Positions 34,876 to 64,000 of a DNA stretch of 64,000 nt are shown here, in pieces. Under the pieces are notes generated by a model. That model had not been told where the DNA came from. It was given only the letters and a program-made list of their open reading frames with translations, and did not search any database. This DNA comes from a virus. Lineage: Duplodnaviria; Caudoviricetes. A program made the translations under genes and the position numbers. The stretch's first letter is position 1, and each line of letters begins with the position of its first letter. Location: the IMG/VR virus record IMGVR_UViG_3300037361_000044, positions 96,001-160,000 of that record; one strand, written 5' to 3'.

Positions 34876-36321
34876 ATGAAAACCGCCGGACTCATACTGG
34901 ACCTGTACGACAACCCGAAAGACCTCAGCAGCATCTACCTCACTCTGGATGAGGTTCCCGAGATGGTGAAGTCGGCTCAGGTTCTCAGCTCTGTGGAGCT
35001 GGACCAACTGCCAGACACCGCTTTTGCTTTGGTGCTGATGGAGGGTGAGTCACGTCTTCGCAAGTACGCTTGCATTGATGGTGGCGGCACCGAGGTGAAC
35101 GTGCAGTACTTCCTGCTACACGGACACAAGCTGCCTGAAGAGGCGCAGAAGACTGCTGCGGCGAACTTGATTACAGCTTGTGGTTGGTATGGCATCGAGC
35201 CGCCGCCCGAGCTGGAGAAGATCGCACTGGGTTTGAATGGCTTGATGACGGCGGCGATGGCGCCTTCGTTGCTGAAGGGCACGCACCAGCAGATCAGCAC
35301 AAACATGGCTGGGGCATCTGCTGGAGGAGGTCGTGTTATGCCGCTGTTGGAGCAGCAAACGCTAGGGCGCATGGCGAAGAGTGCGGAGGCTTCGGGTACG
35401 GCGCTGATGCCGAGCCAGGATGCCGGGGATTTGGGGGCAGCCGTTGCTCGAGGGCGTCCTGGCACCACAAACACCAGCGCCCAGAAGTCAGCAAGTACAG
35501 GGCACCTTGTTCCTGGCCACAATGGCGAGAAGGGCGACGTGCTTGAGCAGGCGTTTGGTGTTGCTGGCACGCAGTACCAAAAGGCACCACAGACACCGGT
35601 GCAGGCGCTGCGGCCGCATGTGGATGTCACTGGCAAGCAGCCACCGAAGAAGTTGGAGACCAAGATGGCTTCCGTCTACGCCTACGAGAACGTATTTCCA
35701 CTCGATGACTACGCGCAGGTGAAGCAAGCTTCCGCGTACTTTGATGCCAACTTGCCAGCAATGCCCCCGTCGATGCGACACGAGTTTGCTGTACACATGG
35801 TGGGTAGGGCTTCCGAGTTAGGCATAGAGTTCAGCAAGGAAGCTGCGGCGTACGGCTCTACGGAATTTGCCGAAGATGAGCAGCTTCAAGCAGCCTTGGA
35901 CATGCGCCGCCCGTTCCTGTCGAAGGAAGCCTCCGCCGCGGTGGACGAGCTCTACGCGCAACGTGCGGCACTGGGTCCAGCGATGTACTGCGAGCTGTTG
36001 GAGGGGATCGATAAGGTTGCTGAGATCGAGTGGCGGTACGACCGCGCCATCTTGGACCCTTACGCCTCCACGTTTGGCGTGAAGGTGGCGGAAGCTCACG
36101 AGACTTGGACGCACGCAAACGACTACGTCACCAAGAAGCAGATGGAAAGCTTTGCTGTCACTGCCGCGTTGGCCCTTCGGGATGACTACGGCGATGACTT
36201 CGTGAAGGATTTCCAGAAGGACCCGTGGGGGATCTTCAACTCGTTACCACTTCCGCAGAAGGTTCGTATCGCTCGCCGCGCCAGCGATAACAGCGCCACG
36301 GGCATGCACGATGTCCAGTAA
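34876..36321 (+). CDS. Head-module protein rich in K-x-A motifs
   Basis: About 12 KxA motifs; LPD.AFALV and FPLD...QV..A..YF segments; upstream of the portal gene. Confidence 0.6.
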   Translation: MKTAGLILDLYDNPKDLSSIYLTLDEVPEMVKSAQVLSSVELDQLPDTAFALVLMEGESRLRKYACIDGGGTEVNVQYFLLHGHKLPEEAQKTAAANLITACGWYGIEPPPELEKIALGLNGLMTAAMAPSLLKGTHQQISTNMAGASAGGGRVMPLLEQQTLGRMAKSAEASGTALMPSQDAGDLGAAVARGRPGTTNTSAQKSASTGHLVPGHNGEKGDVLEQAFGVAGTQYQKAPQTPVQALRPHVDVTGKQPPKKLETKMASVYAYENVFPLDDYAQVKQASAYFDANLPAMPPSMRHEFAVHMVGRASELGIEFSKEAAAYGSTEFAEDEQLQAALDMRRPFLSKEASAAVDELYAQRAALGPAMYCELLEGIDKVAEIEWRYDRAILDPYASTFGVKVAEAHETWTHANDYVTKKQMESFAVTAALALRDDYGDDFVKDFQKDPWGIFNSLPLPQKVRIARRASDNSATGMHDVQ

Positions 36322-37114
36322 AGAAGAGCTGTTCGATAGGATCCTCGCTAGCGTCAAGTCCAGGCAGCCCAAGCTACCGCTGGACGAGGAGCCCACAGCC
36401 GTAGTTGAGACCGCTCAGGGCGATGAGTCCGCCGCAGGCTTGCCCGCACCCCGCGAGGAGCAGTACAAGACGGCAGCGGCCACTCCGGAGAACTTCCTGC
36501 GGAATACCGAGACGCATCCCATCATCCTGGACCTGGTTCTGCTGAACAAGTACGGGGTTGATTGGTTGGGGTGGGAGCCTGAGACCTTGGTGGCAAAGCT
36601 CCAAGAGGACTTCCACACGTTCACGGTGGCCGACGTCAACATTGAGAAGATGCAGGCGTGCAAGGTGCTGCACCTGGTTGACGACTTTTGGTTGCGTTGG
36701 GAGGTGTTTCTCCCCTGCGTGGCAGCCTTCAACGGGCACCTGGCGGACTTCGACAACATGCAGGTGCCGACTGTGGCCGAGTGTATGTTGGCCGTAGATA
36801 TTGCCAACCGTATCCGTGACGACGTGCAATGGAGCGGTGAGCTCAAGACGTACTTGGCGGTGGTCCACAAGCATGACAGCGAGTTGGTGCCGCAGGCGCC
36901 CCTCGAGTTCGTGACGGTGGATACGGACGACCTGCACGTCGACTGTGAGGAGGTACGCCGCAGGTGGCCGGAAGTTAGGGCGAAGGGCCAGCTTCCGTCA
37001 GGTGCTAGTATCGAGGACGAGCAGCTGCGAAAGATGCTCGGCTCCTGGGTGTACCTGGAAGCCATGCGTACTCGTCTTCAATCTCAACTTCTGACGGTGT
37101 TGAAGCATGTTTGA
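36311..37114 (+). CDS. Head-module hypothetical protein
   Basis: Coupled to its neighbours; W..WEPETL motif. Confidence 0.55.
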   Translation: MSSKEELFDRILASVKSRQPKLPLDEEPTAVVETAQGDESAAGLPAPREEQYKTAAATPENFLRNTETHPIILDLVLLNKYGVDWLGWEPETLVAKLQEDFHTFTVADVNIEKMQACKVLHLVDDFWLRWEVFLPCVAAFNGHLADFDNMQVPTVAECMLAVDIANRIRDDVQWSGELKTYLAVVHKHDSELVPQAPLEFVTVDTDDLHVDCEEVRRRWPEVRAKGQLPSGASIEDEQLRKMLGSWVYLEAMRTRLQSQLLTVLKHV

Positions 37115-38261
37115 CCCAGACTTTTCCGAGCCAGCCATGAACGGGTTCCTTGAGCAGCTTCAGAAGGAAGCGCTCACGGCGCCTGTTTCCAGCATCATGT
37201 CAAGCTTGGCGCGGCCGGGGCGGTTGCACGCCATGCAGGCGGGCATGGGTAGCGGTATGGGGCTAGGTCTAGGTGCTGGCCTGCTTGGCGGAGGAGCCCT
37301 GGGTGGTGTCAAAGCGTACAGGCAAGCTCGCGCCGAGGGCGCCAGTCCACTCTCGGCGGTGGGCAGTACCTTGGGCGGTGTGGCGCACGGGGCTCTGCGT
37401 GGCGGCGTCACTGGGGTAGCCCTCGGCGCCGGCGGCGGTGCTCTGCTAGGTGCAGCCGCACCTACGCAGGTCATCTCAGCGACCAAGCAGCTGGCGAAGA
37501 TGCCCGGTAAGGCTGGAGAGTTCTCCAGGTTTGGGCAAAGGCAGGTACACAGCGTGACTGGCTGGAAGCCAGGTGGTGCAACGGCGTCCATTGAGCAGAT
37601 TGGAGCTGGAGCCCACGGCGCGCGCGAAACGGCAAAGGGGGCACTTGCAAGCCTTGGCAAGTCCCCGGAGATGGATGCGCTCGTGGCGGCGCATTCGAAG
37701 GGGCCTGCGGAGGTGGCGGCTGCTCGCCAAGCCTTGCAGGCAGGGCCGGGCGCGAAGCTTACACAGGCGCACAAGGCACTGCGCTCGGCAGAGACGTCGC
37801 AGCAGATGGGCCTGACCAGCCTCCCCGGGTACGCCAAGTCCATTGGCAAGAACGGTTTGATCCCCACGGTGGCCACAGGTGTCAAGGAACAGTGGCAGGC
37901 CTCGGGGCCAAAGGGCAAAGCCATGATGCTCGCGCTCCCCGCTATCTCGGCCGCTGGCACGCTGAAGGCGCCGGATCAGCCAGGAGGTAGAGGAAAGGGA
38001 GAGACAATTGGCAGATTGGCGGGAAGTACATTAGGGTCTCTCGCAGCTCCTATGTCTCTCACCGGTGGTCTGCTGCTTGGTAGTGCGTTCGAACACGCGG
38101 GTGGAGCCATGGGTAAGGGCGTTGACAAGCTGCGCGGCAGGCGCCCCGCGGTACCACAAGACCCGACTCCTCCTCCCGCCACGGCGCCAGGGGATACTGG
38201 GCAGGCGGCAGTTGAGCACGTTTACGGCACCGGCTACGGCGGCGCTGGAGGGTTGGAATAG
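37107..38261 (+). CDS. Gly/Ala-rich internal virion protein (ejection/pilot candidate)
   Basis: Gly-zipper hydrophobic helices after an N-terminal QKEAL motif. Confidence 0.5.
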   Translation: MFDPDFSEPAMNGFLEQLQKEALTAPVSSIMSSLARPGRLHAMQAGMGSGMGLGLGAGLLGGGALGGVKAYRQARAEGASPLSAVGSTLGGVAHGALRGGVTGVALGAGGGALLGAAAPTQVISATKQLAKMPGKAGEFSRFGQRQVHSVTGWKPGGATASIEQIGAGAHGARETAKGALASLGKSPEMDALVAAHSKGPAEVAAARQALQAGPGAKLTQAHKALRSAETSQQMGLTSLPGYAKSIGKNGLIPTVATGVKEQWQASGPKGKAMMLALPAISAAGTLKAPDQPGGRGKGETIGRLAGSTLGSLAAPMSLTGGLLLGSAFEHAGGAMGKGVDKLRGRRPAVPQDPTPPPATAPGDTGQAAVEHVYGTGYGGAGGLE

Positions 38262-38264
38262 TTC

Positions 38265-40301
38265 ATGAGTATCCCAGGCTCGTTGCAGATGGGTGGTGCT
38301 GGTGGCGCGTCGCGTTTTGCGCAGACGCGTGGGCGTATGGGCAACGGAATGAACCAAGGGGTGAACTACCCCAGTCCGTTCTTCGACATTGCGCATACGT
38401 ACCTGCCTACGACGGTCAAGGCGATGTTCCGGTGGTGCCGGTACTACTTCATGACCAACCCCATCATCAATGCCACGGTCTTCAAGCTCTCCGAGTACCC
38501 GATCACGGAGATTCAGATCGACCATCCAGAGCCCTCTGTGGCCAGACGTTGGAAGGAGTACTTCGAAGACCATCTGAATTACAGGGCGTTTCAGATCGAG
38601 TGCGGGCTCGACTACAACACGTATGGCAATTGCCTGTCGAGTTTGAGTTTCCCGTTCAAGAAGTACTTGACCTGTTCGTACTGCCAGCACCAGGCGGAGG
38701 CTAAGCGTATCCGTCCGCACTGGGTGTTCACCAACTACGAGTACCGACTTAGCTGTCCGAAGTGCGGGCAGGTCGGCACTGCCGCGGCCAAGGACATCTA
38801 CTTCAAGAATGAGGCCGGCATCTCGATGATGCGCTGGAGCCCGGAGGACGTTGAGATCAGCTACTCTGCTCTAACAGGCGAGCACACGTACTTCTACAAC
38901 ATCCCGCCGTCTGTTCGTAACGACGTCATCATCGGTAAGAAGGATGCCGTGGAGCAGGTGCCAGAGGTGTTCATCCAGGCACTACGCCAGCAGAAGGGCG
39001 TAGTGTTCTCGAAGGAGCTGTTCTTCCATCTCCGTCGTCCGACGCTGGCTGACCAGGACCGTGGCTGGGGGATCCCGCTGCTGCTGCCCTGTTTGAAGGA
39101 TACGTTCTACCTGCAGATCATGAAGAAGGCGCAGGAGGCTATCCTCCTCGAGCACATCGTGCCCCTTCGTATCCTGTTCCCGCAGGCAGGCTCTGGGACC
39201 TCGGATCCATACACATCGGTCAACCTGGTGGATTGGCGTGACCACGTGGCTACGGAAATAGCGCGTTGGCGCATGGATCCCAACTACATCCCAATCCTGC
39301 CGTTACCCGTTGGTAACCAGACGATTGGTGGGGATGGCCGCGCGCTGCTGATGGTTCAAGAGATGCAGACGTTGAGTGAGCAGCTCATCAACGGTATGCA
39401 GGTACCTCTGGAGTTCATCAAGGGTGGCTTGAGCTTCTCTGGTACGAACGTGTCTATGCGCATGCTCGAGAACCAGTTCATCATCTACCTGTCCCGCCAT
39501 CGTCGTATGGCGCGGTGGGTCATGCGCAGTGTCGCTGATTACCTTGGCTGGCCGCTGGCGGACATCCGCTTCAAGCCCTTCAAGATGGCTGATGACATCC
39601 AACGGAAGGCCTTCCTCTTCCAACTCAACCAGGCCAATAAAGTCAGCGACACCACGCTGCTGGCTGACTCCGATCTGGACCAGACGCGAGAAGACCAAAT
39701 CATGGAGCGCGAGACCGCTGCCCGTATCAAGGCGACGGAGAAGCAGCAGCTTGCCAACGCGGAACTGCAAGGCAAGCAGCAGGCCATCATGATGAAAATG
39801 CAGGCCAAAGCTCAGCAGGAAATGCAAGCCGCGTTGGCTGCCCCCTCCGCTCCGGGTGAGCCTGGTGGGCCAGATGCTGGCGCAGCGCCCCCCGGTGGGC
39901 AAGGTGGTGCACAAGTAGCTCCCGACAGCCCAATGGGGGCCATGCAGAGTCCACTCAATGCTGGACAAAACATGGGCATGGGCACCAGCCAATCCCCAGG
40001 GCAGTCGCCCCAGATGGGTGGCGCCAACATCATCGTGATGGCGCAGACCATCGCTCAGGAGCTCTCCACGTTGAATGCGGGGCAGCAGCTAATTGCCATC
40101 AAGAATCTGCGTATGCAGTCCCCAGAGCTGGCGGACTTGGTGATGCAGAACTTGCGGGCAATGCCGCAGCAGTCCAACGACCCAATGGCAATGGGAAACC
40201 CCAACGCGCAGCTGGGCATGAATGGGCAAGCAGCGCAGCAGGTGGATATGCGACCCTTGCCTGAGAAGCTTCCGCCTCGTCGCGCTGCAGGCATGGTCTG
40301 A
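38265..40301 (+). CDS. Portal protein with zinc-ribbon insertion
   Basis: NPIINATVFKLSEYP, DYNTYGNC, FHLRRP...GWGIP.L, Q-rich C-terminal tail; position in the head module. Confidence 0.7.
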   Translation: MSIPGSLQMGGAGGASRFAQTRGRMGNGMNQGVNYPSPFFDIAHTYLPTTVKAMFRWCRYYFMTNPIINATVFKLSEYPITEIQIDHPEPSVARRWKEYFEDHLNYRAFQIECGLDYNTYGNCLSSLSFPFKKYLTCSYCQHQAEAKRIRPHWVFTNYEYRLSCPKCGQVGTAAAKDIYFKNEAGISMMRWSPEDVEISYSALTGEHTYFYNIPPSVRNDVIIGKKDAVEQVPEVFIQALRQQKGVVFSKELFFHLRRPTLADQDRGWGIPLLLPCLKDTFYLQIMKKAQEAILLEHIVPLRILFPQAGSGTSDPYTSVNLVDWRDHVATEIARWRMDPNYIPILPLPVGNQTIGGDGRALLMVQEMQTLSEQLINGMQVPLEFIKGGLSFSGTNVSMRMLENQFIIYLSRHRRMARWVMRSVADYLGWPLADIRFKPFKMADDIQRKAFLFQLNQANKVSDTTLLADSDLDQTREDQIMERETAARIKATEKQQLANAELQGKQQAIMMKMQAKAQQEMQAALAAPSAPGEPGGPDAGAAPPGGQGGAQVAPDSPMGAMQSPLNAGQNMGMGTSQSPGQSPQMGGANIIVMAQTIAQELSTLNAGQQLIAIKNLRMQSPELADLVMQNLRAMPQQSNDPMAMGNPNAQLGMNGQAAQQVDMRPLPEKLPPRRAAGMV

Positions 40302-40345
40302 TAGGGGGCTAAGAGAAAAAGGGGTCTTGGCGGACCCCTTTCTCC
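40302..40345 (-). terminator. Convergent-junction terminator: hairpin + TAGGGGGCTA motif
   Basis: TAGGGGGCTAAGAGAA-AAAGGGGTC-TTGGCG-GACCCCTTT. Confidence 0.65.
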
Positions 40346-40350
40346 TTTCA

Positions 40351-40536
40351 CTACGCGCGGAGCTCGGGCCCCACCTTCTTGTTCTGCTCGCGCATGCCGA
40401 GCAGCTCAGCCTCGGTCTTGGCCAAGATTTGCTTGGTAGCTCGGTGCTTCCCAGCAACGTAACCAAGGGTTCCGATGACAGCTGCGCCGACGGTTGATGC
40501 GGTGGCAATGATGGCGATGCGAATAGCGTTGGTCAT
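40351..40536 (-). CDS. Small single-TM protein
   Basis: Hydrophobic N-terminal half and basic tail. Confidence 0.55.
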   Translation of the reverse strand: MTNAIRIAIIATASTVGAAVIGTLGYVAGKHRATKQILAKTEAELLGMREQNKKVGPELRA

Positions 40537-40587
40537 GGTCTTTTGCTTTCCTGGAACAACCGATGTGGCTGTTTTCCTCTTACCTTA

Positions 40588-40597
40588 CTTATGCCCG
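40588..40597 (-). promoter_or_regulatory. GATAAG-type motif (CGGGCATAAG)
   Basis: Intergenic, upstream of 40536. Confidence 0.4.
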
Positions 40598-40617
40598 CTT
40601 TCCCGGCGTTTTTGCAG

Positions 40618-41997
40618 TTATGCCACATCGTCTAGGAAGATGGTCTCGCCCCAATCTGCTGGAGCGCGTCTACGTGATCCAGGAACAATTCCCCAGATGA
40701 CGTTGATGCCACGCGGCTGCTCCTCGGGCGCTGTTCCGTCGCCATCGCTCAAGTAGATCACAGCATCTGGCTTCGGTCTGGCCTGCTCTGCCATCTCGAA
40801 GGCTGGGCAGAAGTCTGTACCCCCACGCCCCTTGATCTCCATGTGCTGCAGGTCCCTTATGGACACACGTGTTGGCGGTGTTTGTACTTTCGTGTCCGCC
40901 TCCATGTACCAGACGTTCATGACGCCGGTCTGCCGCATGACATCAACGCAGACGCGTAGCGCGTCACCCAGGTTCTGCTTCCCCATGGAGGCAGAGCTGT
41001 CGACTACGATCCATATTGTCGGCTCGTACGCGATCAGCCCAGGCCTTGGAAAGCCAACCAGTGTGGAGCGCTTTGAAGGTCTGCGCATGCTGTAGTCCAG
41101 GCCTCCTCTTTGGATGTTACCTACCAAGCTGCGTGTAGCTCTGCCGAGTTTTGCCACCCAGGGCACATGAAACACGGTGTCGCTGATTTCAACTATCTCG
41201 CTCCACGAGCCGGGCATGGTCCCGCGGCCCTCTCCTTCCATGTGCGCCTTTATTGCAGCCGCGGTGTCGCGTGCAAACTTGTGGCACTGCGTCTCTGAGT
41301 GCCCTATCCGATTGTCTTCTGACTTCTCCAATTCCTTTCTTAGCGGGTTGCCGGATACGCCACCGCAGCAGCCAGCCATGATCTTTCCCTGGTTTGGCTT
41401 TTCTCCGGGCTGCGGCGAGCTGCTGGAAGAACCCAGGCCTTGCCCAGGCTTCCCGGCACCGTTGCTGCCAGCAGCCTGTTTTTGGTGCTCCTTGGCCTCG
41501 TGCTTTTCCAGCAGGTGGTAGTACGCATCCGCAGTCAGCCCATCTTCGAATCCGTATTGAGACGGCATGAGCGCCCAGTCCGGGAATTCCCAAAGCGGCG
41601 CTTGCTTGATGACCTGGTTGCCGTTGTCCTTGGTGCGTATACTCCGCATTTGCTTGACCATCGTGCCGTTGATGAACAAGTCAGCTGCCCTGTTGTAACG
41701 CTCGGGGTCTGCGTAGCTCTTTCCTCGGTTGATGTGATGCAGCAGCGCGTGCAGGCACTCATGCCCTAGCCCAGTGGCAAGTACAAGCACGCTTATCTCG
41801 TTGAGCCAGTCGGGCTCGTAGAGAAGTACTAGCCGCTCAGTAACTGCCAGCGGGCCACCCGCTATCTCAGTAAGGCCCACGTAGGGCCTTGGAATGAGGC
41901 CGTACAGGGTGGCCCCGAAGTACGGCGCTTGTAGTTTCACATAGGCTCGAGCCAGCGCAAGCTTATTGCTTGTTTTGTCCGATCCGACTTCTGCCAC
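40618..41997 (-). CDS. DUF2201-type metallopeptidase-VWA protein
   Basis: HECLH; MIDAS-like VVDSSASM; GRGGTDF; YLSDG. Confidence 0.85.
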   Translation of the reverse strand: MAEVGSDKTSNKLALARAYVKLQAPYFGATLYGLIPRPYVGLTEIAGGPLAVTERLVLLYEPDWLNEISVLVLATGLGHECLHALLHHINRGKSYADPERYNRAADLFINGTMVKQMRSIRTKDNGNQVIKQAPLWEFPDWALMPSQYGFEDGLTADAYYHLLEKHEAKEHQKQAAGSNGAGKPGQGLGSSSSSPQPGEKPNQGKIMAGCCGGVSGNPLRKELEKSEDNRIGHSETQCHKFARDTAAAIKAHMEGEGRGTMPGSWSEIVEISDTVFHVPWVAKLGRATRSLVGNIQRGGLDYSMRRPSKRSTLVGFPRPGLIAYEPTIWIVVDSSASMGKQNLGDALRVCVDVMRQTGVMNVWYMEADTKVQTPPTRVSIRDLQHMEIKGRGGTDFCPAFEMAEQARPKPDAVIYLSDGDGTAPEEQPRGINVIWGIVPGSRRRAPADWGETIFLDDVA

Positions 41998-41998
41998 G

Positions 41999-43255
41999 TT
42001 AGGCCAGCTCTTTCAGGAAGTTCTGTACGCCGCTCTTGGATAGACGCACCAGTACAGGTCTCGCTGCAGCAACCACATCGCTGTTGCCGGAGTGCACACC
42101 CAACTGGGCCTGGATAAGACCCTCCACGCAAGGCACAACAACGTCGGATAGCTGTGCGTCGAATAGCTGACCCAGGCTCTTCCACAGCAGCGGTGCCACC
42201 TCTAGCTGCGCATCACGTGACGGTTTTTGCCGTACGTATGCTGTGGCGCTGTTGTACGCAGCTAGCACGATGTCCAGCCGGTGGGGGTTTACCTTCCACT
42301 TGCCTGTGAGCACATCCATGGGTTTCGGTATGTCCGTTTCTGCTGCGTAGGTCATGAACATTGAGCCGGCCCCTTCGCCAACGCAGGAATACACCAACGC
42401 TTCGCGGATACTGTCACCCTTATGTAGGATGCTCGCAGTAGTCCACGCCCGCATGGCGTAGTCCCACGTGCGTGGCGATGGCCAGCTTTTGCTGCTTTGC
42501 GGGTCGGACGGTGCCGGCATCTTGTGTAGTAGCGACGGATTGGCTTCCATGAATGCGGTGAACAAGCCTAGGGTCTCGGGAAAGATGGAAGGCCAATCCG
42601 AGATGACTACCTCTTCGATCTCAGCCAGGGTTGCTTGTAATCCCTCCAAGGTGTTGCCCATCTGGAAGGCGCTCCACTCACGCGCTGTTGGACCGGGGTC
42701 GGTCACGTGCATGAAGCGGTTGGCTAGTGGCGGGGAGAACCTGAAGCCCCCGGTGGCTATGTCCTCGGGGTTCGACGCCGCGAGCATTCGAATGCCCCCA
42801 GGAATGGGCTGGTCCCCAGCCACCCGTTCATGGATGAAGCTTTGGATGGCACCCTGTGTGGCAGGCGTGGCGCCGTTCACCTCGTCGAGAAAGATGATGC
42901 CGCGCCCGACCTTGATGAGCTCGCGTACCTGAGAGAGCGGGCAGATCTGTCTGGCCCCTCCCTTACCATCCGGGATGAGCGCCCCGGAGAAGTCCTCGGG
43001 TGGATGCTGCGCTGCGAACAAAGACCTGGCACTGATGTGCAGTACCTTGCTCATCTGTTTGATGCGGGCGGTTTTGGCGTTGCCAGGTAGGCCTTCGATA
43101 ATGAGGGGCAACCCCCAGAGACAATCGTCGTGGCCAGGGTACCCGTCCATGGGGGAGGCCAAGGCCACCTCAACCAGCTCGTTTAGCTCTTTTCTCCCCA
43201 GCGGCATTGCGAGGGGATTGGTCAGCGCGGTTGTACTTGCTTTCTTAGTTGCCAT
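41999..43255 (-). CDS. MoxR-like AAA+ ATPase
   Basis: EGLPGNAKT, IFLDEVN, AASN, PLANRF, PSPRTW. Confidence 0.85.
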   Translation of the reverse strand: MATKKASTTALTNPLAMPLGRKELNELVEVALASPMDGYPGHDDCLWGLPLIIEGLPGNAKTARIKQMSKVLHISARSLFAAQHPPEDFSGALIPDGKGGARQICPLSQVRELIKVGRGIIFLDEVNGATPATQGAIQSFIHERVAGDQPIPGGIRMLAASNPEDIATGGFRFSPPLANRFMHVTDPGPTAREWSAFQMGNTLEGLQATLAEIEEVVISDWPSIFPETLGLFTAFMEANPSLLHKMPAPSDPQSSKSWPSPRTWDYAMRAWTTASILHKGDSIREALVYSCVGEGAGSMFMTYAAETDIPKPMDVLTGKWKVNPHRLDIVLAAYNSATAYVRQKPSRDAQLEVAPLLWKSLGQLFDAQLSDVVVPCVEGLIQAQLGVHSGNSDVVAAARPVLVRLSKSGVQNFLKELA

Positions 43256-43256
43256 T

Positions 43257-43868
43257 CTATCCATCTCCAGCAGGCTTGTGACAGTCGCAGTTTCCGTGTC
43301 TCCAGCAGCGTTCGTAGAGACCATCCAGGCACACCTGTAGACCGGGCTTGGGCTCGAGTGGGGCTTCCCATAGGGGCTCGTCCCGTCCGTCTTCCATGTG
43401 CTTTAGACAGCCGATGCAGATGTGGTAGTCGTTCTGCATCTCCACGAACTTCGGGGTAGGTTCCCCGTTTGGCGCGCGCTCTGACCAGTGCATCTCACCG
43501 AATTGCAAGATGGCCACGGTCTCGCCCAGCAGTACATCACTGCGGCAAGCATCGCACTCAATCACCCCGTCGTCATCTACTACGGGCGGAGCATCTTCTG
43601 TGAGCTCTCTTAGGTCTTCCAGCACCTCCTCGCCACAGTCGAAGCAGTAGAACGTTGGGTTGTACATGTAGTCGCCGTCTGCGCCCAACAGGTCCACATG
43701 CTGCACCGTGGTCTTCGGCTGCACCGGCTGCACGACGCGTAGGAGGAATATCTCCTCGGTCATCATCAGTTCCGCACCGCAGTGGGCGCATACGACTCCG
43801 GCGCTCTCGTCCGTGTCTATCTCGTCTTCATCTTCTTCATCTTCTTCGTCGGTTACGTACGCAACCAC
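43257..43868 (-). CDS. Acidic Cys-rich protein with a duplicated CxxC domain
   Basis: CAHC, CFDC, CDAC, CIGC. Confidence 0.55.
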   Translation of the reverse strand: MVAYVTDEEDEEDEDEIDTDESAGVVCAHCGAELMMTEEIFLLRVVQPVQPKTTVQHVDLLGADGDYMYNPTFYCFDCGEEVLEDLRELTEDAPPVVDDDGVIECDACRSDVLLGETVAILQFGEMHWSERAPNGEPTPKFVEMQNDYHICIGCLKHMEDGRDEPLWEAPLEPKPGLQVCLDGLYERCWRHGNCDCHKPAGDG

Positions 43869-44559: not shown

Positions 44560-44560
44560 G

Positions 44561-44707: not shown

Positions 44708-44731
44708 GTCGAATTTCCTCCGTACATGGTC

Positions 44732-56825: not shown

Positions 56826-57309
56826 AAGGGTAGACGTGGCAGAGACCAAGGCTGTCTTCGCGGAGCTTCGTGAGAGAGCAGGAGGCCAGGAAGAACCCGC
56901 GGCGCTGGGTAACGTGCTCAACGCTGTGGTGAAGTTCAATCAGGTGCGTGACTACACCACGTTCCTGGCGGAGTACACGTGCTTGGACGGAAACATCGTC
57001 GTGCACTTCTTCCCGCCGCTGGAGGCCTACGTAGGCGTGGGCGAAGCCCGCAAAGTGGTGGAGGAGTACCTGTTGTTTTGGCAGAAGAAGTTCCCGCTGG
57101 TACTTAGTCCAGTCGCCGAGGACTACTTCAAAGCCACGCGCCCGGTGCTTACTGCCCAGTACATCCCGGAGATGCAGAGTTGGTACCTGAAGGCAGGGGG
57201 TTTCGCCAACAGGCTGGATCCCGACGCCTTCATTTTGAAATTCTTCGAGAGATTGGATGCGGGGCTCGATGCGAGCTACCCCTCCCCTTCCCGTGTTCCT
57301 GGGGCTTAG
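56809..57309 (+). CDS. Hypothetical protein
   Basis: SD GAGGGAG; overlaps the upstream stop. Confidence 0.55.
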   Translation: MEVNARRVDVAETKAVFAELRERAGGQEEPAALGNVLNAVVKFNQVRDYTTFLAEYTCLDGNIVVHFFPPLEAYVGVGEARKVVEEYLLFWQKKFPLVLSPVAEDYFKATRPVLTAQYIPEMQSWYLKAGGFANRLDPDAFILKFFERLDAGLDASYPSPSRVPGA

Positions 57310-57589
57310 GCGGGGAGTACTTGATGTGCAGGGCGACGTGCCCTCGCTTTTGAGACAGCTCATCCAGCGCCCAGTGCGACCGCCTGGCATACCCCCTCAT
57401 GTAGCTACTGGCTGTTTTCCATAATTCTGAGGGTATCTTGGACGTCAGGCGGAATGTAATCTTGAATCCCGACTCGTCTTGGTCCACGGTAGCCTCCTCA
57501 CCCCAATGCAGGTTAGATGCCCTCCGTAGTGACGACCACATGTTTTGAACCAGCGTGTATGGATCCTTGGTTGGTGTTGGAGGGTACAT
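57230..57589 (-). CDS. Possible small hypothetical protein
   Basis: Fills the gap before TerL; start uncertain. Confidence 0.3.
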   Translation of the reverse strand: MYPPTPTKDPYTLVQNMWSSLRRASNLHWGEEATVDQDESGFKITFRLTSKIPSELWKTASSYMRGYARRSHWALDELSQKRGHVALHIKYSPPKPQEHGKGRGSSHRAPHPISRRISK

Positions 57590-57592
57590 TGA

Positions 57593-59428
57593 ATGGCTGC
57601 CGCTGAAAGGTTTACTGAGGACTACTCGGAGCACCCGGACGACTCTGGTGCAGAGGGTACCCCACTTTCTGATGAAGAGCTACAACGCCTGGCCGAGCTC
57701 GATAGGTGGGTGCCGGAGGCCGAGGAGTACTTGGACCTCTGCACGGATGACGACCCGTACAAGTTCCTCCGGGACGGTGACGCTCCGGTAATCCTCCCGT
57801 CTAGCTTCACTGAGTACGCCTTCTGGATGCCCACGAGCAACGGCTACGAGCAGTTCTCGTTCGAGGGGCGTCATCATCTGCGGCAGGTCTACGACACCCC
57901 ACGGCGTCGTGTATTGCTCATGTGCGGTCGTCAGGTCGAGAAGTCCACACTTCTTGGCAACAGGGCTTTGGCCTTGGGGTGTCTCATCCCCGCCTACAAG
58001 ACCCTTTATGTTAGCCCCTCGGCAACGCAAACCAAGACGTTCTCTAACGACCGTGTGAAGGATCCTATCGAGACCAGCCCTGTGCTGCGGGCCTTCACGA
58101 ACCGCATGCTGTCGCAGAACGTTTTCGAGAAGCAGTTCATCAACCGCTCGAAGATCACACTGCGTTACGCCTTCCTCAACGCTGACCGCGCGCGCGGTAT
58201 CCCAGCCAACCAGCTCCTCATCGACGAAATCCAGGACATCCTATCGGACAACATCCCGGTCATCGAGCAGTGCTTGTTCCACTCCCCCGAGGAGCTGAAG
58301 CGGTTCGTCTACTCAGGGACGCCCAAGACCCTGGACAACGTGATCGAGGATTATTGGAGCAACCGTTCCACGCAGAACCAGTGGGTGGTGCCCTGTGACT
58401 GCACGGGCGGGGAAGCGGGCCGTTACTGGAACATCCTTGGCGAGAAGAACATCGGCAAGAAGCACCTGATCTGCGAGCACTGCGGCAAGCAGATCTTTCC
58501 AATGGGTCCAGCCTCACAGTGGGCCAGCGCCGTGGAGTACGACCCGGTTCATACGCCCTTCGAGGGGTACCGCATCCCCCAGCTCATGGTCCCGTGGCTG
58601 GACTACAACGAGCTGCTCTACAACTACAACAGCTACTCCCGCAACAAGTTCTACAACGAGACGTTGGGTATTTCCTTCGATAGCGGGTTGCGGCCGCTCA
58701 CGAAAGCGCAGGTTCGCTCGAATTGCATCGAGACCATTCACATGGCGGATGCGGACAAGTACCAGAAGCTGTCCTTCAGCCAGCCTATCTTTGCTGGAAT
58801 CGACTGGGGCACAGGCGAGAACACGTACACGGTGCTCTCCCTGGGCATGTACATTCGGAACAAGTTTCGGATCTTCTATGTGCACAGGTTCACAGGAGAG
58901 GACATCGAGCCAGATCGGCAGCAGGAGAAGATTCGAGATATTCTACGCACGTTCAATGTGCGCATCATCGGCGCCGACTATGGTGGCGGCTACTATCCCA
59001 ACGACTACTTGACCCGCCAGTTTGGCCCAGACCGGCTGATGAAGTACCAGTACGTGGCCAGGCTCACGTCGAAAGTACGCTGGGAGAACAAGTTGCGGCG
59101 TTGGATGGTGCACCGCTCAGAGGTGATGAGTGCCATCTTCAATGCCATCAAGCGTGGCAATGTATTTGAGTTTCCACGTTGGGCTGAGTTCAATGACCCG
59201 TACGGCCAGGACATGCTCAACATCTTCAGCGAATACAACGAGAAGCTGCGCATGATTCAGTACGGGCACACCGCAGGAAAGACGGACGATACATTTCACT
59301 CCATCCTGTACTGCTTCCTGGCTTCCATGGTCATGCGTCCACGCCCGGACATCATCGCCCCTGGCAAGGAGGCCGAGGGGGTTGGCCCCGTCTGGAGTTC
59401 GTACTCGGGGCCTGTTGACCAGGGTTGA
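57593..59428 (+). CDS. terL: Terminase large subunit (lambda gpA-like)
   Basis: GRQVEKST, IDEIQD, SGTPKT, zinc ribbon, NETLG, GIDWG nuclease motif, DD.FH. Confidence 0.9.
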   Translation: MAAAERFTEDYSEHPDDSGAEGTPLSDEELQRLAELDRWVPEAEEYLDLCTDDDPYKFLRDGDAPVILPSSFTEYAFWMPTSNGYEQFSFEGRHHLRQVYDTPRRRVLLMCGRQVEKSTLLGNRALALGCLIPAYKTLYVSPSATQTKTFSNDRVKDPIETSPVLRAFTNRMLSQNVFEKQFINRSKITLRYAFLNADRARGIPANQLLIDEIQDILSDNIPVIEQCLFHSPEELKRFVYSGTPKTLDNVIEDYWSNRSTQNQWVVPCDCTGGEAGRYWNILGEKNIGKKHLICEHCGKQIFPMGPASQWASAVEYDPVHTPFEGYRIPQLMVPWLDYNELLYNYNSYSRNKFYNETLGISFDSGLRPLTKAQVRSNCIETIHMADADKYQKLSFSQPIFAGIDWGTGENTYTVLSLGMYIRNKFRIFYVHRFTGEDIEPDRQQEKIRDILRTFNVRIIGADYGGGYYPNDYLTRQFGPDRLMKYQYVARLTSKVRWENKLRRWMVHRSEVMSAIFNAIKRGNVFEFPRWAEFNDPYGQDMLNIFSEYNEKLRMIQYGHTAGKTDDTFHSILYCFLASMVMRPRPDIIAPGKEAEGVGPVWSSYSGPVDQG

Positions 59429-59452
59429 CGCCATACTGGTAGAAGCTAGTAT
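59425..59452 (+). promoter_or_regulatory. Sigma70-like promoter for the HNH gene
   Basis: TTGACG-16 nt-TAGTAT, 5 nt before ATG 59458. Confidence 0.4.
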
Positions 59453-59457
59453 GGTGT

Positions 59458-60138
59458 ATGCCTTCAAGGAAGTGTTGCCCAACTTGTAACCGTCCATACC
59501 CAGTGCTGCCAAAGCGTGCCTGTCTTGTCTGTAAGGAGCCGTTCAGCCCATCAGGTGTCACCAACGTCTGCTGCTCTAGGGAGTGTCAGCGCAAACACAA
59601 AGGAAGCTTTGCCGAGCGGTTTTGGGCACGCGTCAACAAGCATGGGTTAGTTGCAGACGGAATGAAAACGAGCTGCTGGCTATGGACCGGCAGGCTAGAG
59701 AAAAATGGATACGCTAGGGTGAAGCGTGCAGATTCGAGGCAGCAAGTGTCTGTGCATCGTGCCGCTTGGGAACTACTGCACGGTGAGGTACCAGCTGGCA
59801 TGTTCGTGTTGCATGAGTGTGACGTGCGCCATTGCGTTCGACATCTGTCCCTGGGTACGCACCAAGACAACATGAATGACATGTTCCGTAAAGGCAGGGC
59901 ACGCAAAGCACAAGGGGCTAGGCACGGCCATGCAAAGCTTACGCCTCAGCAGGTTATAGACATTGTCCGACGTCGGCTGTCTGGTGATACCCCGCGCGAA
60001 CTAGCAACTGCTTATGGGGTCTGCGAAGCGCAGATAGGCAGGATTTGCACAGGCAAGCGTTGGAAGGAGGCGCTGGCAGGTCTGGGGACTTACGAGTACA
60101 TGCAGCGAGGGAAGAAGGTACAGGTCTCTTTTGGCTAA
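59458..60138 (+). CDS. HNH endonuclease with C-terminal HTH
   Basis: CWLWTG, VHR..W...HG, VLHECD...C..HL..GT..DN..DM. Confidence 0.85.
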   Translation: MPSRKCCPTCNRPYPVLPKRACLVCKEPFSPSGVTNVCCSRECQRKHKGSFAERFWARVNKHGLVADGMKTSCWLWTGRLEKNGYARVKRADSRQQVSVHRAAWELLHGEVPAGMFVLHECDVRHCVRHLSLGTHQDNMNDMFRKGRARKAQGARHGHAKLTPQQVIDIVRRRLSGDTPRELATAYGVCEAQIGRICTGKRWKEALAGLGTYEYMQRGKKVQVSFG

Positions 60139-60178
60139 TAGGGGGCTACGAGAAAGGGGAGTTTTACTCCCCCTTCTT
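60139..60178 (-). terminator. Convergent-junction terminator: hairpin + TAGGGGGCTA motif
   Basis: TAGGGGGCTACGAGAAA-GGGGAGT-TTT-ACTCCCC. Confidence 0.65.
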
Positions 60179-60444
60179 CACTCAGCCGCGCGCCGCGTCT
60201 TCAGCGCTTTCTCTACTTCGTCGTAGCCCAGCACCACTGGCCAGGCGACAGCTGAGAAGCCAATGAGTCCAATAAACGCAGCGTTGGCCACGATTGCCAG
60301 CTGCCGTTCGGATAGCGGGTTGTCCTCTGTCACCGCGGCAATGAGCACGTCGGCAGTCCAGCGTGATCGTTTTACTTCTTGGTAGGCGTTGTAACCAACT
60401 ACTGCACCCATCGCTACGTAGGCTGTTGTCAATAGAAAGCTCAT
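60178..60444 (-). CDS. Small two-TM membrane protein
   Basis: SD GGAGG; two hydrophobic segments. Confidence 0.55.
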   Translation of the reverse strand: MSFLLTTAYVAMGAVVGYNAYQEVKRSRWTADVLIAAVTEDNPLSERQLAIVANAAFIGLIGFSAVAWPVVLGYDEVEKALKTRRAAE

Positions 60445-61205
60445 GGCGTTCCTCCACTACTCTCCTTATCCCCGAAATCGTCGTGGATTTGAGACAACGC
60501 CAAGGAAATTCTTCGAGGGTAGAGTTGGGAGATGACCTCGTCGGTCACGGCCTTATCCACGAATAGGGCATCGGCCATGCGCTGACCACGTCTCTCCAGC
60601 ACGTAGAAATAGGCCACGTGCCGCAGGCTTTTACGAGCAGCCTCGAGGCACGAGTAAGCAAAGGGTAGACTCATGTCACGCAACTTGCTTGGGCGGTCCG
60701 CCAAGCGATTGGCGAGTTGCATGTAGATCTCCCAAGGACTCGAGTAGTCCGTGATGTCCTCCAGCAGCCGCAGGTAGGACTCGTCTATTGCGTTGATAAT
60801 GGTGGCCCACTCCAGAATCTGGTCGGCGGGCACCCGGCTTAGATCCGACAACAGCAGCTCGTACGCCTGCGCGTGGATCTGGAACATGCTTTCCTGCTCA
60901 TAGGCCAGGCGCCTGTTGTCCAGCCCCAGCAGCTGGCAGAGCATGGAGAGCCGGTCGGCGACTGAGCTACTGAGGGCCGCGGCCTGCCTGGCTAGGTGCG
61001 CCACGGATGGCATGTCCATGGTCCGTCCGCGCAGTTCGAGTATTGCCCGGATGTCGGCGGGGTCGTAGAGGGAGTCGATGACGTGCTTCCCGCGGAAAGC
61101 TGGGCGCAGCTTGCCTTGGCGAACCAGTGCGGTGAGCCAGCGGGGGGTTACACCCAGCTGCTTGGCTGCAGCCTTGTGCGTGAGTAGCTTAGGATTCCTT
61201 CCCAT
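60441..61205 (-). CDS. MerR/excisionase-type HTH DNA-binding protein
   Basis: LLT..AAAKQLGVTPRWL..LVRQGKL...YDPADI. Confidence 0.7.
   Translation of the reverse strand: MGRNPKLLTHKAAAKQLGVTPRWLTALVRQGKLRPAFRGKHVIDSLYDPADIRAILELRGRTMDMPSVAHLARQAAALSSSVADRLSMLCQLLGLDNRRLAYEQESMFQIHAQAYELLLSDLSRVPADQILEWATIINAIDESYLRLLEDITDYSSPWEIYMQLANRLADRPSKLRDMSLPFAYSCLEAARKSLRHVAYFYVLERRGQRMADALFVDKAVTDEVISQLYPRRISLALSQIHDDFGDKESSGGTP
60465..60474 (-). promoter_or_regulatory. GATAAG-type motif (CGGGGATAAG)
   Basis: About 20 nt upstream of ATG 60444 and separate from its SD. Confidence 0.45.
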
Positions 61206-61240: not shown

Positions 61241-62575
61241 ATGAAAGGGCCAGCCATGAATGACTCACCCATGCAGACCATGCTGCAGCAACGCGACGCC
61301 CGCCCCATCCCCGGCGAGCACCTGGAAGTACTAGGCAAGCGCGCTGCCACAAGCTGGGTCACCGGTAAGTGCGCGTCGCTGCATGAGGCAGTTGTGGCGT
61401 CGGTCCACTCCGAGCGGCTTTCCCCCGAGCAGGTACGCCGAGTGGTTGAGTTTGCAAACCAGGATGCATACCAGCAGGAATTCCGCAAAGAAGGGCAGCA
61501 CAAGGTGGTTCATTTCGATTGCGGACCGGCGGATCCGGCGCAGGTTCTCCAAGACTTGAATGACGGCGGAGGTGGGTCGGTGTACGATCAGGGCAACCTG
61601 GACTACAGGATGTCCCCATCCATGGCAAAATCCGCGTCACTCAGCCGTACCCCGACCACGTCCATGGACAAGACCGCTTCCGCCGCATCAGAAGAGCCAG
61701 CGGTGCCGGGCTTGCCCAAACTAACCAAGCTCCCCAGTTTGCCCAAGCTGGCATCGGAGTCCCCTTACGAGGACCAGCTCTGGGGCCTGTTTGGCGCCGA
61801 GTCTCCTTCGGTGCTCCCCATGGCGGAGCCCATGGGCCCGCTGATGGAGGTTCGTCACAAGCTGGCTGGCGTTCACAACGAGCTCGTACACGAAGTCAAC
61901 AAGCTCGAGCTCGACTACGTCGAGGTCAGCAAGGACCTGTACCACTCGGTGAAGCAGGCCTCGTTGGAAGGACACCCGCTGGGGGACATCGTCGCGGCCT
62001 GGGCTACGGTCAACACCGACCCGGTGTACGTGAAGGTGGCCTTCCAGCTACTGTCGCCTCAGCTCCGCAGAGACGGCGTGTTCGACAGTCTTGAGGCCAT
62101 CGGAGAGTCCCTGCAGAAGCAGGCATCGGTGGGCACCCCCAACCCGGAGCATCCCCTGGTGCAAGCTTACGGGGACTTCGTTGCCACACTGAACAAGCTG
62201 GCAACTGCTCGCGCGCTGATGGGTGAGTACGCAGAGGGCTTGGAGTCCGCCGACTTGCTGCTGAAACAGGCAGCTGGAGGGTTGGTTGGTGCCGTGGGAA
62301 AAGGGTTGTCCGCGGCCAGCAAGGGGATTGATACCGCGGCAAAGCCGGTAGCTCACATGCTGGTTGGTGGAAAAGACGCCAAGAAGTTGGCACCACTTTT
62401 GGCCAAAGGTACCAAGCTCACAGGCGGTGCTGCCGCGTTGCTGGCCGGTAACGCTGCTGTCCAAAACGTGACGGACCGTCCCGCTGTGCGTAGCGCAGTG
62501 CAGGCGGCGCAGAAGGTGGTACCTGGCACGGCCGCGTACAACGAGCGCCGCTACCGCAACCAGATGGGAATGTAA
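61241..62575 (+). CDS. Head-module protein rich in K-x-A motifs
   Basis: LSPEQVRRVVEFAN..AY; about 10 KxA motifs; G/A-rich tail. Confidence 0.6.
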   Translation: MKGPAMNDSPMQTMLQQRDARPIPGEHLEVLGKRAATSWVTGKCASLHEAVVASVHSERLSPEQVRRVVEFANQDAYQQEFRKEGQHKVVHFDCGPADPAQVLQDLNDGGGGSVYDQGNLDYRMSPSMAKSASLSRTPTTSMDKTASAASEEPAVPGLPKLTKLPSLPKLASESPYEDQLWGLFGAESPSVLPMAEPMGPLMEVRHKLAGVHNELVHEVNKLELDYVEVSKDLYHSVKQASLEGHPLGDIVAAWATVNTDPVYVKVAFQLLSPQLRRDGVFDSLEAIGESLQKQASVGTPNPEHPLVQAYGDFVATLNKLATARALMGEYAEGLESADLLLKQAAGGLVGAVGKGLSAASKGIDTAAKPVAHMLVGGKDAKKLAPLLAKGTKLTGGAAALLAGNAAVQNVTDRPAVRSAVQAAQKVVPGTAAYNERRYRNQMGM

Positions 62576-62576
62576 G

Positions 62577-63167
62577 ATGACGAACCCAGCAGAAAAGTTC
62601 TTGGTAGAGAAGCGAGCGTTTGGTTTAGGCGGGGCTGCCAACGCGGCAAAGAGCGTGGGTCGCGCTGTCAAACCCTTCGGGCAAGCTGCTGGTATGGCCA
62701 TGGCCGGTGGCGTTGGTGCCGCTGGCTTTGCCGGTCTGGTTGGTGCCGCTGGCAAGCTGTTTACGGCTGCCACGAAGTCTCGAGACTTTCGGGCAATGCT
62801 CGAAGCCAACCCGGATCTGAAGGAGCACCAGAAGATGGACCCCGGTGGGTTCAATCGCATGTACTCGTCCCTGCACACCATGGCTCCGGAGTTTGCCAAA
62901 GAGCCCATGGTTGCTGGCTACTACATGCGGCAAGGCATGGAGGCCCCGCTTGAGGGGCGTGGTCAGGTCGCTGTGCAGGCGATGAACGCGCGCAAGCCCC
63001 AGCAGATGGGACCGGTCTCGGATATGGCTCTGCAGGGCTACATGCGTAGCATGGGTGGCAAACCAGACGGCGGTAAGCAGCTGCTCCGCGGGCAGACGAA
63101 GACCACATACGCGCCGGGTGATGAGGGTGTGGTTCAACGCGTAGAGACTACCGACAACCACTACTGA
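62577..63167 (+). CDS. Gly/Ala-rich internal virion protein
   Basis: EKRAF near the N-terminus followed by hydrophobic Gly-rich helices. Confidence 0.5.
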   Translation: MTNPAEKFLVEKRAFGLGGAANAAKSVGRAVKPFGQAAGMAMAGGVGAAGFAGLVGAAGKLFTAATKSRDFRAMLEANPDLKEHQKMDPGGFNRMYSSLHTMAPEFAKEPMVAGYYMRQGMEAPLEGRGQVAVQAMNARKPQQMGPVSDMALQGYMRSMGGKPDGGKQLLRGQTKTTYAPGDEGVVQRVETTDNHY

Positions 63168-63168
63168 C

Positions 63169-64000
63169 ATGATCAAGGTCAGCCTCTTTCAAGGTAGCGA
63201 GGAGTACGGTCCAGCAGCGGTACCGCTCTTTGGCGCGGCAGACAGCTACTTCGAAAAGGTAGCTTCTGCCTCGTTGCTACCGGAGGTGTCGACGTACATA
63301 GCCCAGTTGCAGCCACGTAACGACTCGCAGTACGTCTTGGTCAACGCCATGGGCGCTGGCGAGTACTACGGGTCGAACGTCAACGGCGACCGCTTCTCCG
63401 AAGAAGCCCTGATCCATTCGCCAAACGATTGGAAGGGCATCCCCGTCTACGACAAGGTGAAGTCTGCGGACTGGGCCTACGGGTTTCCGACCTTCTATGG
63501 GGCGCATGTATTCCCTCATCATCGCAACAAGGACGCCAAGCGTGCCCTTGGTTTCGTTGAACTAGCCGCTTGGAACCCGCACATGAAGCGGGTCGAGCTT
63601 GTGACAAGGCTGGACAACGCGCTGTGTTTGAAGTTCGGCGGTGAGGGCATCTGGGACAAGCTCAAGGCTGGCATGTTCCCTGACGTCAGCATGGGAACGA
63701 AGGTACCCTTCGACACCTGCTCGATCACGCTGGACAAGGAGCTCTACTACAAGGCTTGGGCGACGTACGACCCCAAGAAGCACAAGAGCCCAGGCGAGGC
63801 CATCCTCGAGTACCACAAGAAGCTCAAGGCCAAGGACGGCGTCGGCATTCGTGGTGTCAGCATCACACGCGCTGATTACTCCAAGTACGCGCGCACCCGT
63901 ATGAACTTCATCCTCCCAGATGGCCGCAAGGTCTGGGTGGACAACGACTTCCCTAAGTTCTTCGACCTCAGCTATGTCTTCATGGGCGCTGACCGCATAG
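63169..64000 (+). CDS. Putative prohead (capsid maturation) protease, 3'-truncated
   Basis: Not in the ORF track. MIKVSLFQ...EKVAS...GSNVNGDRF...HHRNKD...DVSMGTKVP.D.CSI: NGD-F / His / SMG pattern reminiscent of HK97/assemblin-type proteases. Confidence 0.6.
   Translation, partial: MIKVSLFQGSEEYGPAAVPLFGAADSYFEKVASASLLPEVSTYIAQLQPRNDSQYVLVNAMGAGEYYGSNVNGDRFSEEALIHSPNDWKGIPVYDKVKSADWAYGFPTFYGAHVFPHHRNKDAKRALGFVELAAWNPHMKRVELVTRLDNALCLKFGGEGIWDKLKAGMFPDVSMGTKVPFDTCSITLDKELYYKAWATYDPKKHKSPGEAILEYHKKLKAKDGVGIRGVSITRADYSKYARTRMNFILPDGRKVWVDNDFPKFFDLSYVFMGADRI

Follow-up and report, generated by a model that had tools for sequence, protein, structure and literature searches.

The 64,000-nucleotide window analysed here (bases 96001-160000 of the IMG/VR virus record IMGVR_UViG_3300037361_000044, a single record of 190,298 bp) carries, among the head genes of a tailed phage, the gene for a bacterial-type RNA polymerase (RNAP). 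It is well supported that this enzyme belongs to a self-contained transcription system of the phage family, which comprises the polymerase, a sigma factor, a promoter class that we term P1 and a terminator. A circuit of this kind had been put forward in the original prediction; its polymerase, promoter and terminator prove to be specific to the family, but that account omitted the sigma factor, which is itself P1-driven. Positions are those of the window unless they are marked as genome positions. The majority strand, which holds the virion genes, is called plus, and the minority strand is called minus.

The record is complete according to CheckV (100%), has a GC content of 59%, and holds approximately 78% of its coding bases on the plus strand by our own gene calls, with minus-strand blocks interspersed. 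The same 201 bp occur at both ends (genome 1-201 and 190098-190298), so the assembly closes on itself, and the duplication most likely arose as an overlap in the assembly of a map that is circular or circularly permuted. Comparisons were made between this genome (G000) and four complete relatives (G001 to G004; RNAP identity 41-74%), as well as with Salmonella phage Arash (OQ632216.1; PMC10585845) and three Vibrio phages (D69, D181 and D148), all of which have orthologous RNAP (30-32% identity), sigma factor (31-35%), portal, large terminase subunit (TerL) and major capsid protein (MCP). By orthology of the RNAP, sigma factor and portal (29% identity to Arash gp204, E = 2.6e-82), and by portal-RNAP synteny, the virus is classified as an uncultured tailed phage of the Arash-like, or mReC RNAP, lineage, which numbers 74 loci in IMG/VR. 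The mReC lineage consists of uncultured tailed phages of about 100-200 kb whose bacterial-like beta/beta' proteins form a clade apart from cellular RNAPs, and the paper that describes it is confined to phylogeny, with nothing on sigma factors, promoters, terminators or packaging (PMC7481178). In that work the MCPs matched the Pfam family Gp23 (PMC7481178), whereas here searches with the Pfam families for T4 MCP (Gp23), portal and prohead protease gave no matches, and the controls for two of the three, including that for Gp23, were also silent.

The polymerase gene (44812-51213, plus) encodes a protein of 2133 aa that matches the Pfam families Rpb2_6 (E = 8e-58), Rpb1_2 (4e-29) and Rpb1_5, contains both double-psi beta-barrel domains and carries the Mg-binding motif NADFDGD at residue 1403. 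The NCBIfam models rpoC (2e-139) and rpoB (1e-105) also match, all under their equivalog cut-offs. With beta at approximately residues 247-1006 and beta' at approximately residues 1124-2095, the protein is, as judged from its sequence, the catalytic core of a bacterial-type multisubunit RNAP fused in one chain; in Arash the orthologous enzyme is cut inside beta' and is represented by gp206 plus gp216. The N-terminal zinc ribbon of beta' is absent, with a short GG-rich link (residues ~1056-1083) in its place, and the sigma-binding clamp-helix segment (1190-1260) is conserved. The entire genome encodes one beta' domain, and a search of it for the alpha subunit (PF01000) was empty, although the control for this search was positive in 14 of 14 genomes. 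No confident placement of the rifampicin pocket within the beta part was obtained. As had been claimed, the gene lies on the plus strand and overlaps a spike gene, in that its TGA stop codon (51211-51213) and the following ATG (51213-51215) form TGATG at 51211-51215.

Upstream of genes, k-mer enrichment singled out GGGATAAG, and the aligned sites give the P1 consensus gCAA-N16/17-GG(G/C/T)ATAAG, with a Shine-Dalgarno (SD) sequence about 10 nt further on. A position weight matrix (PWM) was built from 63 sites in four genomes and applied at a threshold of at least 13 bits, with reversed sequence as the control. This matrix finds 28 sites in the genome, against 0-1 in the controls, and GGNATAAG within 70 nt of a same-strand start codon occurs 15 times, against once in the reversed control. 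The original prediction had described the motif of the minus-strand islands as GATAAG-type; this holds for the full P1 element, but the hexamer by itself is barely enriched in the window (18 versus 13.0 ± 3.2 expected), and in the island at 60178-61205 P1 stands before the second gene only. If the motifs were products of chance or base composition, and the strand layout a relic of replication or insertion history, such a marginal hexamer count would be expected, as would the outcome of generic scans of 40260-60250, in which neither terminators nor full sigma-70 promoters (5 versus 6.3 expected) are in excess. Against this stand the counts for the full motif, its fixed distance to SD sequences and start codons, and its conserved position before orthologous genes in relatives with RNAP identity as low as 30%. 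Conservation effectively refutes this explanation, which we regard as extremely improbable.

P1 sites head several of the minus-strand units in the window. The replication block (17151-34739, minus), whose family matches include PolA, primase, DnaB, an SNF2 helicase and an exonuclease, probably begins at a TTG codon at 34739 with a strong SD, and is preceded by the variant GCAA-N16-GGGAAAAG (34783-34816, minus; PWM score 16.5 bits); in G002 the orthologue has a P1 of canonical form 38 nt upstream of its start codon. Another variant, GCAA...GAGATAAG (44732-44765, minus; 13.9 bits), stands at the head of the accessory island at 40351-44707, divergent from the RNAP gene. At this site the -10 (plus-strand CTCTTATCYCG) and the -35 GCAA (plus-strand TTGC) are invariant in eight relatives whose flanking sequences have diverged. 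Further sites precede a 61-aa gene (GCAA-N16-GGCATAAG; 40588-40621, minus; 24.8 bits) and an 88-aa gene (60465-60498, minus; 22.6 bits), and two more are found by the matrix on the minus strand at 31431-31438 and 18758-18765. Listed in the same way, the four sites named before are at 34783-34790, 44732-44739, 40588-40595 and 60465-60472.

Strand was originally taken to define the regulon, with all replication and early-type genes on the minus strand. The replication block and the islands do lie there, as do 20 P1 sites out of 28, a bias with a binomial p of about 4e-8 to 7e-7. However, one HNH gene and eight P1 sites (genome 25483, 37136, 50702, 54506, 57332, 74837, 77602 and 176777) are on the plus strand, so P1 marks a class of genes and not a strand. 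Across G000 to G003, the units led by P1 are ORFan cassettes, replication genes and the sigma operon, and P1 was never found ahead of the RNAP, portal, TerL or MCP genes. Both the sigma operon and replication genes are preceded by P1 in G000, G001 and G002, with the replication sites located before the SNF2 block and before DnaB-primase-PolA in G002, and before the block leading to DnaB in G000 and G001. Ten P1-driven proteins compared with Pfam and PHROGs gave almost no matches, apart from one subtilase domain. These findings support a separate promoter class for non-structural genes, one that favours the strand opposite to that of the virion genes without being restricted to it.

P1-type motifs recur with RNAP homologues, as the original prediction would lead one to expect. 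Counts of GGNATAAG relative to the reversed control are 26/10 in G001, 20/6 in G002, 42/18 in G003 and 13/0 in G004, with the same -10 and -35 elements in G001 to G003 and the -10 only in G004. In Arash, where the -10 is GGTATAAG instead of the GGGATAAG or GGCATAAG that predominate here, there are 31 copies against 5 control matches, and 30 of these 31 lie on the strand opposite the RNAP gene, in islands like those described above. The sole same-strand copy, at position 11588, is directly upstream of gp9-gp10, the latter being the sigma gene. In Vibrio phage D69 GGTATAAG is not enriched (9 versus 11 in the control); its islands carry a variant, GTTATAAG, followed by TGTA. The core TATAAG is retained across phages of Salmonella, Vibrio and unidentified hosts of 56-62% GC. 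Because this -10 core, ending in G, is kept from host to host, we infer that P1 is read by a factor specific to the phage family rather than by various host sigma factors.

A candidate for this factor is a sigma-70-family protein of 256 aa encoded outside the window (genome 26952-27722), in which regions 2, 3 and 4 are recognisable by alignment. Its best NCBIfam match is FliA/WhiG (TIGR02479; E = 1.4e-11), although the score of 44.6 bits lies well under the membership cut-off of 189.6. The protein is conserved in all four complete relatives and is orthologous to Arash gp10 (35% identity, 6e-26). Promoters of the sigma-28 (FliA/WhiG) type have the form TAAA-N15-GCCGATAA, and the layout of P1 resembles theirs, with a -35 rich in A, about 15 nt of spacer and a -10 that contains GATAA; the differences are that the -10 of P1 ends in an invariant G (ATAAG) and that the regulon here consists of phage genes. 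No second sigma factor emerged from the genome: PF04542 hits only the known protein, PF04545 gives one weak match (E = 0.01; genome 28982), and there is no counterpart in the present clade of the second Arash sigma factor, gp196. A KQKVA|S sequence lies close to the N-terminus of the sigma factor.

Among 50,697 phage records, the four best matches of the sigma factor (E = 2e-21 to 3e-16) are in Arash, D69, D181 and D148, the same phages that hold the best RNAP matches. Four further sigma matches, in unannotated records, are partial and much weaker (E about 2e-4 to 5e-4). Moreover, each of the five complete genomes under study encodes both the sigma factor and the RNAP. A complex model of the sigma factor with RNAP residues 830-1500 scores 0.75, compared with 0.06 for the best of three controls. 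Of 80 solved complexes, 58 came up to this mark, as did 2 out of 110 mismatched pairs. Contact agreement between runs is at least 96% and the predicted local distance difference test (pLDDT) value of the partner is at least 82. In the model, sigma residues 41-82 (region 2) lie on the clamp helices (1199-1246) and residues 163-203 on the flap (RNAP 901-979). The model supports binding of the sigma factor to the clamp helices and flap of the phage enzyme, with the qualification that, since bacterial holoenzymes have been solved, passing the mark may reflect likeness only, and phage and host cores are not separable in this way.

One alternative is that the sigma factor steers the host core to P1, like SPO1 gp28 or T4 gp55, while the phage beta-beta' enzyme reads structural promoters with host sigma-A, with another factor or with none. 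Capture of the host core is the common case for phage sigma factors (PMC7824862), the RNAP gene is co-regulated with structural genes, and no alpha subunit is encoded, all of which would fit. Yet such an arrangement does not account for the co-occurrence of sigma factor and RNAP in five complete genomes, or for their shared best-match phages. Nor does it sit easily with the retention of the P1 core across such different hosts, with the conserved clamp helices, or with the score of the complex model, even if this last result may only mirror the solved holoenzymes. We consider appropriation of the host core distinctly unlikely.

The terminators are a second signature of the family. The sequence TAGGGGGCTA occurs in exactly three copies in the 190-kb genome (16870, 40302 and 60139), all at convergent junctions, where it adjoins an A-tract/GC-hairpin/T-tract structure; the claim that the islands end at a hairpin next to a fixed sequence was therefore correct. 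TAGGGGGCTA is the reverse complement of a TAGCCC terminator tail, and on the minus strand the structures read as a hairpin, TTTCT(C)T and then TAGCCCCCTA. Two of the three are two-way terminators that bound the islands described here, one at 40302-40344 (minus reading: hairpin, TTTTTCTCT, TAGCCCCCTA) and the other at 60139-60174. Genome-wide, approximately 16-18 terminators, the majority of them on the minus strand, carry the tail (T)TAGCC(C), and some tailed terminators end plus-strand P1 units, for example genome 177650 after the P1 at 176777. Among the relatives, G002 and G003 share the tail, which there frequently adjoins the -35 of a following P1, and D69 and Arash show a weaker version of it (TTTTAGC or TTTTAGG), the terminators of Arash having T-tracts followed by TAG. 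Because the tail is present also where no promoter follows, it belongs to the terminator. By sequence, these are intrinsic terminators, with a GC hairpin and a T-tract at gene ends, and the TAGCC tail goes beyond the classical definition; the tail could act on the phage RNAP or be an RNA-processing site.

The virion genes appear to use different signals. The original prediction had assigned extended -10-like motifs to the plus-strand genes, and genome-wide this is borne out by the element TGnTAnnnT, for which G000 has nine and G001 seven sites 5-9 nt upstream of a start codon, where controls have about one. Nearly all of these sites are on the majority strand at places where virion genes resume after inserted cassettes, and they are conserved pairwise between G000 and G001, with a few in G002 to G004. 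Examples are found at window position 8455 and at genome positions 80124, 85527, 179674 and 187637. Within 34876-64000, by contrast, motifs of this kind are weak and no strict TGnTAnnnT site precedes a start codon; there the gene at 34876 has GTGCTACAAC and the RNAP gene has GnTATACT. The latter includes a TATACT -10-like element (44793-44798, plus) with G at -14, located 13 nt 5' of the RNAP ATG and lacking a conserved -35, and GnTATACT is invariant in eight relatives whose flanks vary. With TGnTAnnnT only 5-9 nt from the start codon, several virion genes of G000 and G001 should give mRNAs with no leader or almost none. A search for a second promoter class by expectation maximization drifted to a purine-rich pattern of low information, and gapped k-mers returned only pieces of P1. 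In a separate observation, four virion genes (genome 47914-50997, 80139-80489, 85541-86197 and 87848-91861) form an uninterrupted run in G003 and G004, but in G000 they are separated by ~29 kb and ~5 kb of P1-driven accessory cassettes, and the resumed genes at 80139 and 85541 each have their own extended -10 element.

TGnTAnnnT is a generic bacterial extended -10, and thus the host sigma-A holoenzyme could read it; the structural-gene promoters could be read either by that holoenzyme or by the phage core in combination with a different factor. In the original prediction the RNAP is made late and the late genes are handled by the host sigma-70 RNAP; both are conjectures. This opens the way to a conventional cascade, in which the host holoenzyme reads the extended -10 elements, including that of the RNAP gene, the sigma factor is obtained by read-through, and the newly made phage RNAP with its sigma factor is a non-virion middle enzyme for the P1 genes. 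The host RNAP is on hand from the outset, and the upstream structural genes and the sigma operon have no intervening terminator. A cascade would also suit an RNAP that has no cleavage or targeting motif, provided that the polymerase signal in purified Arash particles, whose protein list is implausibly long at 116, is contamination by abundant proteins. On the other hand, virion genes would then precede replication genes in transcription, and the Arash polymerase yields more spectra than the MCP, with beta', sigma factor and Gp206 all high in gradient-purified particles. We judge this cascade fairly unlikely, also in view of the location of the RNAP gene, which lies between portal and spike in every relative.

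The Arash particles are the main point of contact between the genes described here and a virion. In particles purified on sucrose gradients, Gp206 accounts for 3516 spectra, the most of any protein, compared with 1333 for the MCP and 1210 for Gp216 (PMC10585845), while the sigma factor Gp10 is represented by 467 spectra at 100% coverage (PMC10585845). If the same applies to the present phage, polymerase and sigma factor would be packaged, injected with the DNA and would start transcription from P1, the phage beta-beta' core with its sigma factor reading P1 promoters and stopping at the hairpin/T-tract/TAGCC(C) terminators. Since P1 drives the sigma gene, a first dose of sigma factor must be supplied, and its delivery together with the polymerase by the virion is the most economical model, to which we give about an even chance. 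Virion delivery in this phage is plausible in view of the Arash particles, of the control of the sigma gene by P1, of the place of the RNAP gene between portal and spike in every relative and of the absence of that gene from the P1 regulon. We would put at somewhat below even the chance that the lineage packages a complete sigma-dependent holoenzyme (a one-chain core without alpha plus a FliA-like sigma factor), with positive feedback between P1 and sigma factor and a dedicated hairpin/U-tract/UAGCC stop.

Several observations weigh against delivery of a self-sufficient enzyme that serves the minus-strand genes. There is no terminator before the P1 at genome 25483 that leads the sigma operon, so read-through could supply the sigma factor, which weakens the bootstrapping argument. 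No N-terminal propeptide is conserved in the RNAP, which also lacks the type of EK-x-A cleavage motif seen in neighbouring head proteins, and its GDKMAG is the universal beta motif and not a cleavage site. Because alpha is not encoded, the enzyme may need that of the host. The link between the sigma factor and P1 is drawn from architecture (two elements, sigma-28-like) and from co-occurrence, and the plus-strand P1 sites include that of the sigma operon and several of accessory blocks, so strand is not the rule. Finally, the 116 proteins listed for Arash particles include ribonucleotide reductases, and the authors allow for carry-over (PMC10585845).

The proposed arrangement resembles known systems in part. 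Phages phiKZ and AR9 likewise have a two-barrel enzyme that is thought to be delivered by the particle and to read early genes from phage-specific promoters. Those phages have two paralogous sets of split subunits, no sigma factor and no need of host RNAP; here there is one fused enzyme with a sigma factor and a -35/-10 promoter, and with its single beta' domain and its sigma factor the virus falls outside the phiKZ-like class with virion and non-virion RNAPs. The logic proposed for the present phage is also that of coliphage N4, in which a virion RNAP serves the early genes and the host sigma-70 RNAP the late genes: an injected polymerase would read early genes, and late virion genes on the other strand would possibly be left to the host RNAP. 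However, the N4 virion RNAP is a T7-like single-subunit enzyme of 3500 aa that uses DNA hairpin promoters, and a second phage RNAP serves its middle genes. The present enzyme is of the beta-beta' type and P1 is a linear promoter of two elements, which places the virus outside the N4-like class as well. To our knowledge, all characterised virion RNAPs (those of N4, phiKZ/AR9, crAss-like phages and P23-45) operate without a sigma factor.

If the lineage does package such a holoenzyme, its polymerase would be the first of any virion to depend on a sigma factor, with a promoter and terminator grammar kept from Salmonella to unidentified GC-rich hosts. It would also be a minimal beta-beta' enzyme, without alpha and zinc ribbon, that has a defined promoter and terminator. 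Such an enzyme could be of use in studies of RNAP assembly, of sigma recognition of a -10 ending in G, and of the effect of sequence past the U-tract on termination. Because the lineage includes phages in culture (Arash and the Vibrio phages), these predictions are directly testable. The existence of this RNAP lineage (PMC7481178) and the proteins of Arash particles (PMC10585845) have already been reported, and we found no publication on the promoters, terminators or sigma dependence of the lineage.

In all four complete relatives, the portal operon, RNAP, spike-like, 680-aa, TerL and, later, MCP genes follow one another in this order on one strand, and the replication module is on the opposite strand. 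In the present genome, the head operon (34876-40301, plus) encodes proteins of 481, 267 and 384 aa and the portal (38265-40301), an order conserved in these relatives. In Arash the polymerase gene also follows the portal gene. The gene translationally coupled to that of the RNAP (51213-52466, plus) encodes a probable central spike of 417 aa with a gp5/VgrG-like beta-helix. A profile of five sequences matches the PDB entry 9f4a (E = 3.2e-6), T4 gp5 (3e-5, C-terminal beta-helix) and, weakly, VgrG, and the T4 gp5-type match makes the earlier label of baseplate spike reasonable. Its adjacency to the RNAP gene is kept in G001 to G004. An AlphaFold model from the five sequences was too poor to use (pLDDT 37). 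The gene after the RNAP differs in Arash: equivalence of the spike-like protein with Arash gp217 was ruled out (hhalign probability 0.2%), the two being unrelated.

Further along the plus strand lie a conserved 680-aa protein with a conserved EKLA|S motif, probably a head protein (53124-55166), TerL (57593-59428; phrog_675, 5.4e-55; resembling Arash gp1) and genes for 444-, 196- and 571-aa head-module proteins (61241-64000, the last resembling Arash gp222), which lead into the MCP gene just past the window. The upstream regions of TerL and of the gene at 55896 were considered as promoters and rejected, because footprinting shows coding-type conservation instead. The 283-nt gap before TerL (57230-57634, minus) has such conservation in eight relatives and probably holds a small missed minus-strand open reading frame (ORF) back-to-back with the TerL start codon, and the footprint upstream of 55896 points to a longer N-terminus.

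The accessory island at 40351-44707 (minus), characterised by Pfam and PHROGs matches and by translation, encodes the 61-aa protein, a DUF2201 metallopeptidase/VWA protein (40618-41997), a MoxR-like AAA ATPase (41999-43324), a zinc-ribbon protein, a 204-aa protein and a 48-aa ORF from 44707. This island, including the DUF2201/VWA and MoxR pair, lies between portal and RNAP in G001 and G002 but not in G003 and G004. The second island (60178-61205, minus) encodes the 88-aa protein and an HTH_17 protein, which by family matches is a regulator or small-terminase-like.

Within the replication block, a strong hairpin at 25573-25616 (minus) is followed by TCTCTTAGCC and then immediately by the PolA ATG, with no SD. 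Two readings are that PolA relies on terminator read-through, or that the hairpin serves as a structure at the 5' end of the PolA mRNA. The SNF2/ResIII helicase (31409-34180, minus) is longer here (923 aa) than in G001 and G002 (568-589 aa), and its residues 355-401 match LAGLIDADG_3; an intein or the insertion of a homing endonuclease may account for this.

A conserved EK[IVLT]A motif, which resembles a prohead-protease cleavage site, is concentrated in head-module proteins. It occurs at residue 23 of the MCP (genome 164182-165303), at residues 29 and 313 of the 571-aa protein (63169 on), at residue 516 of the 53124-55166 product and in the product of genome 161699-163584. The TerL region is flanked by two HNH homing endonuclease genes, at 55163-55840 (minus; phrog_374, 8e-62) and at 59458-60138 (plus; identified by family match), and Vibrio phages D181 and D148 carry a homing endonuclease within the RNAP region.

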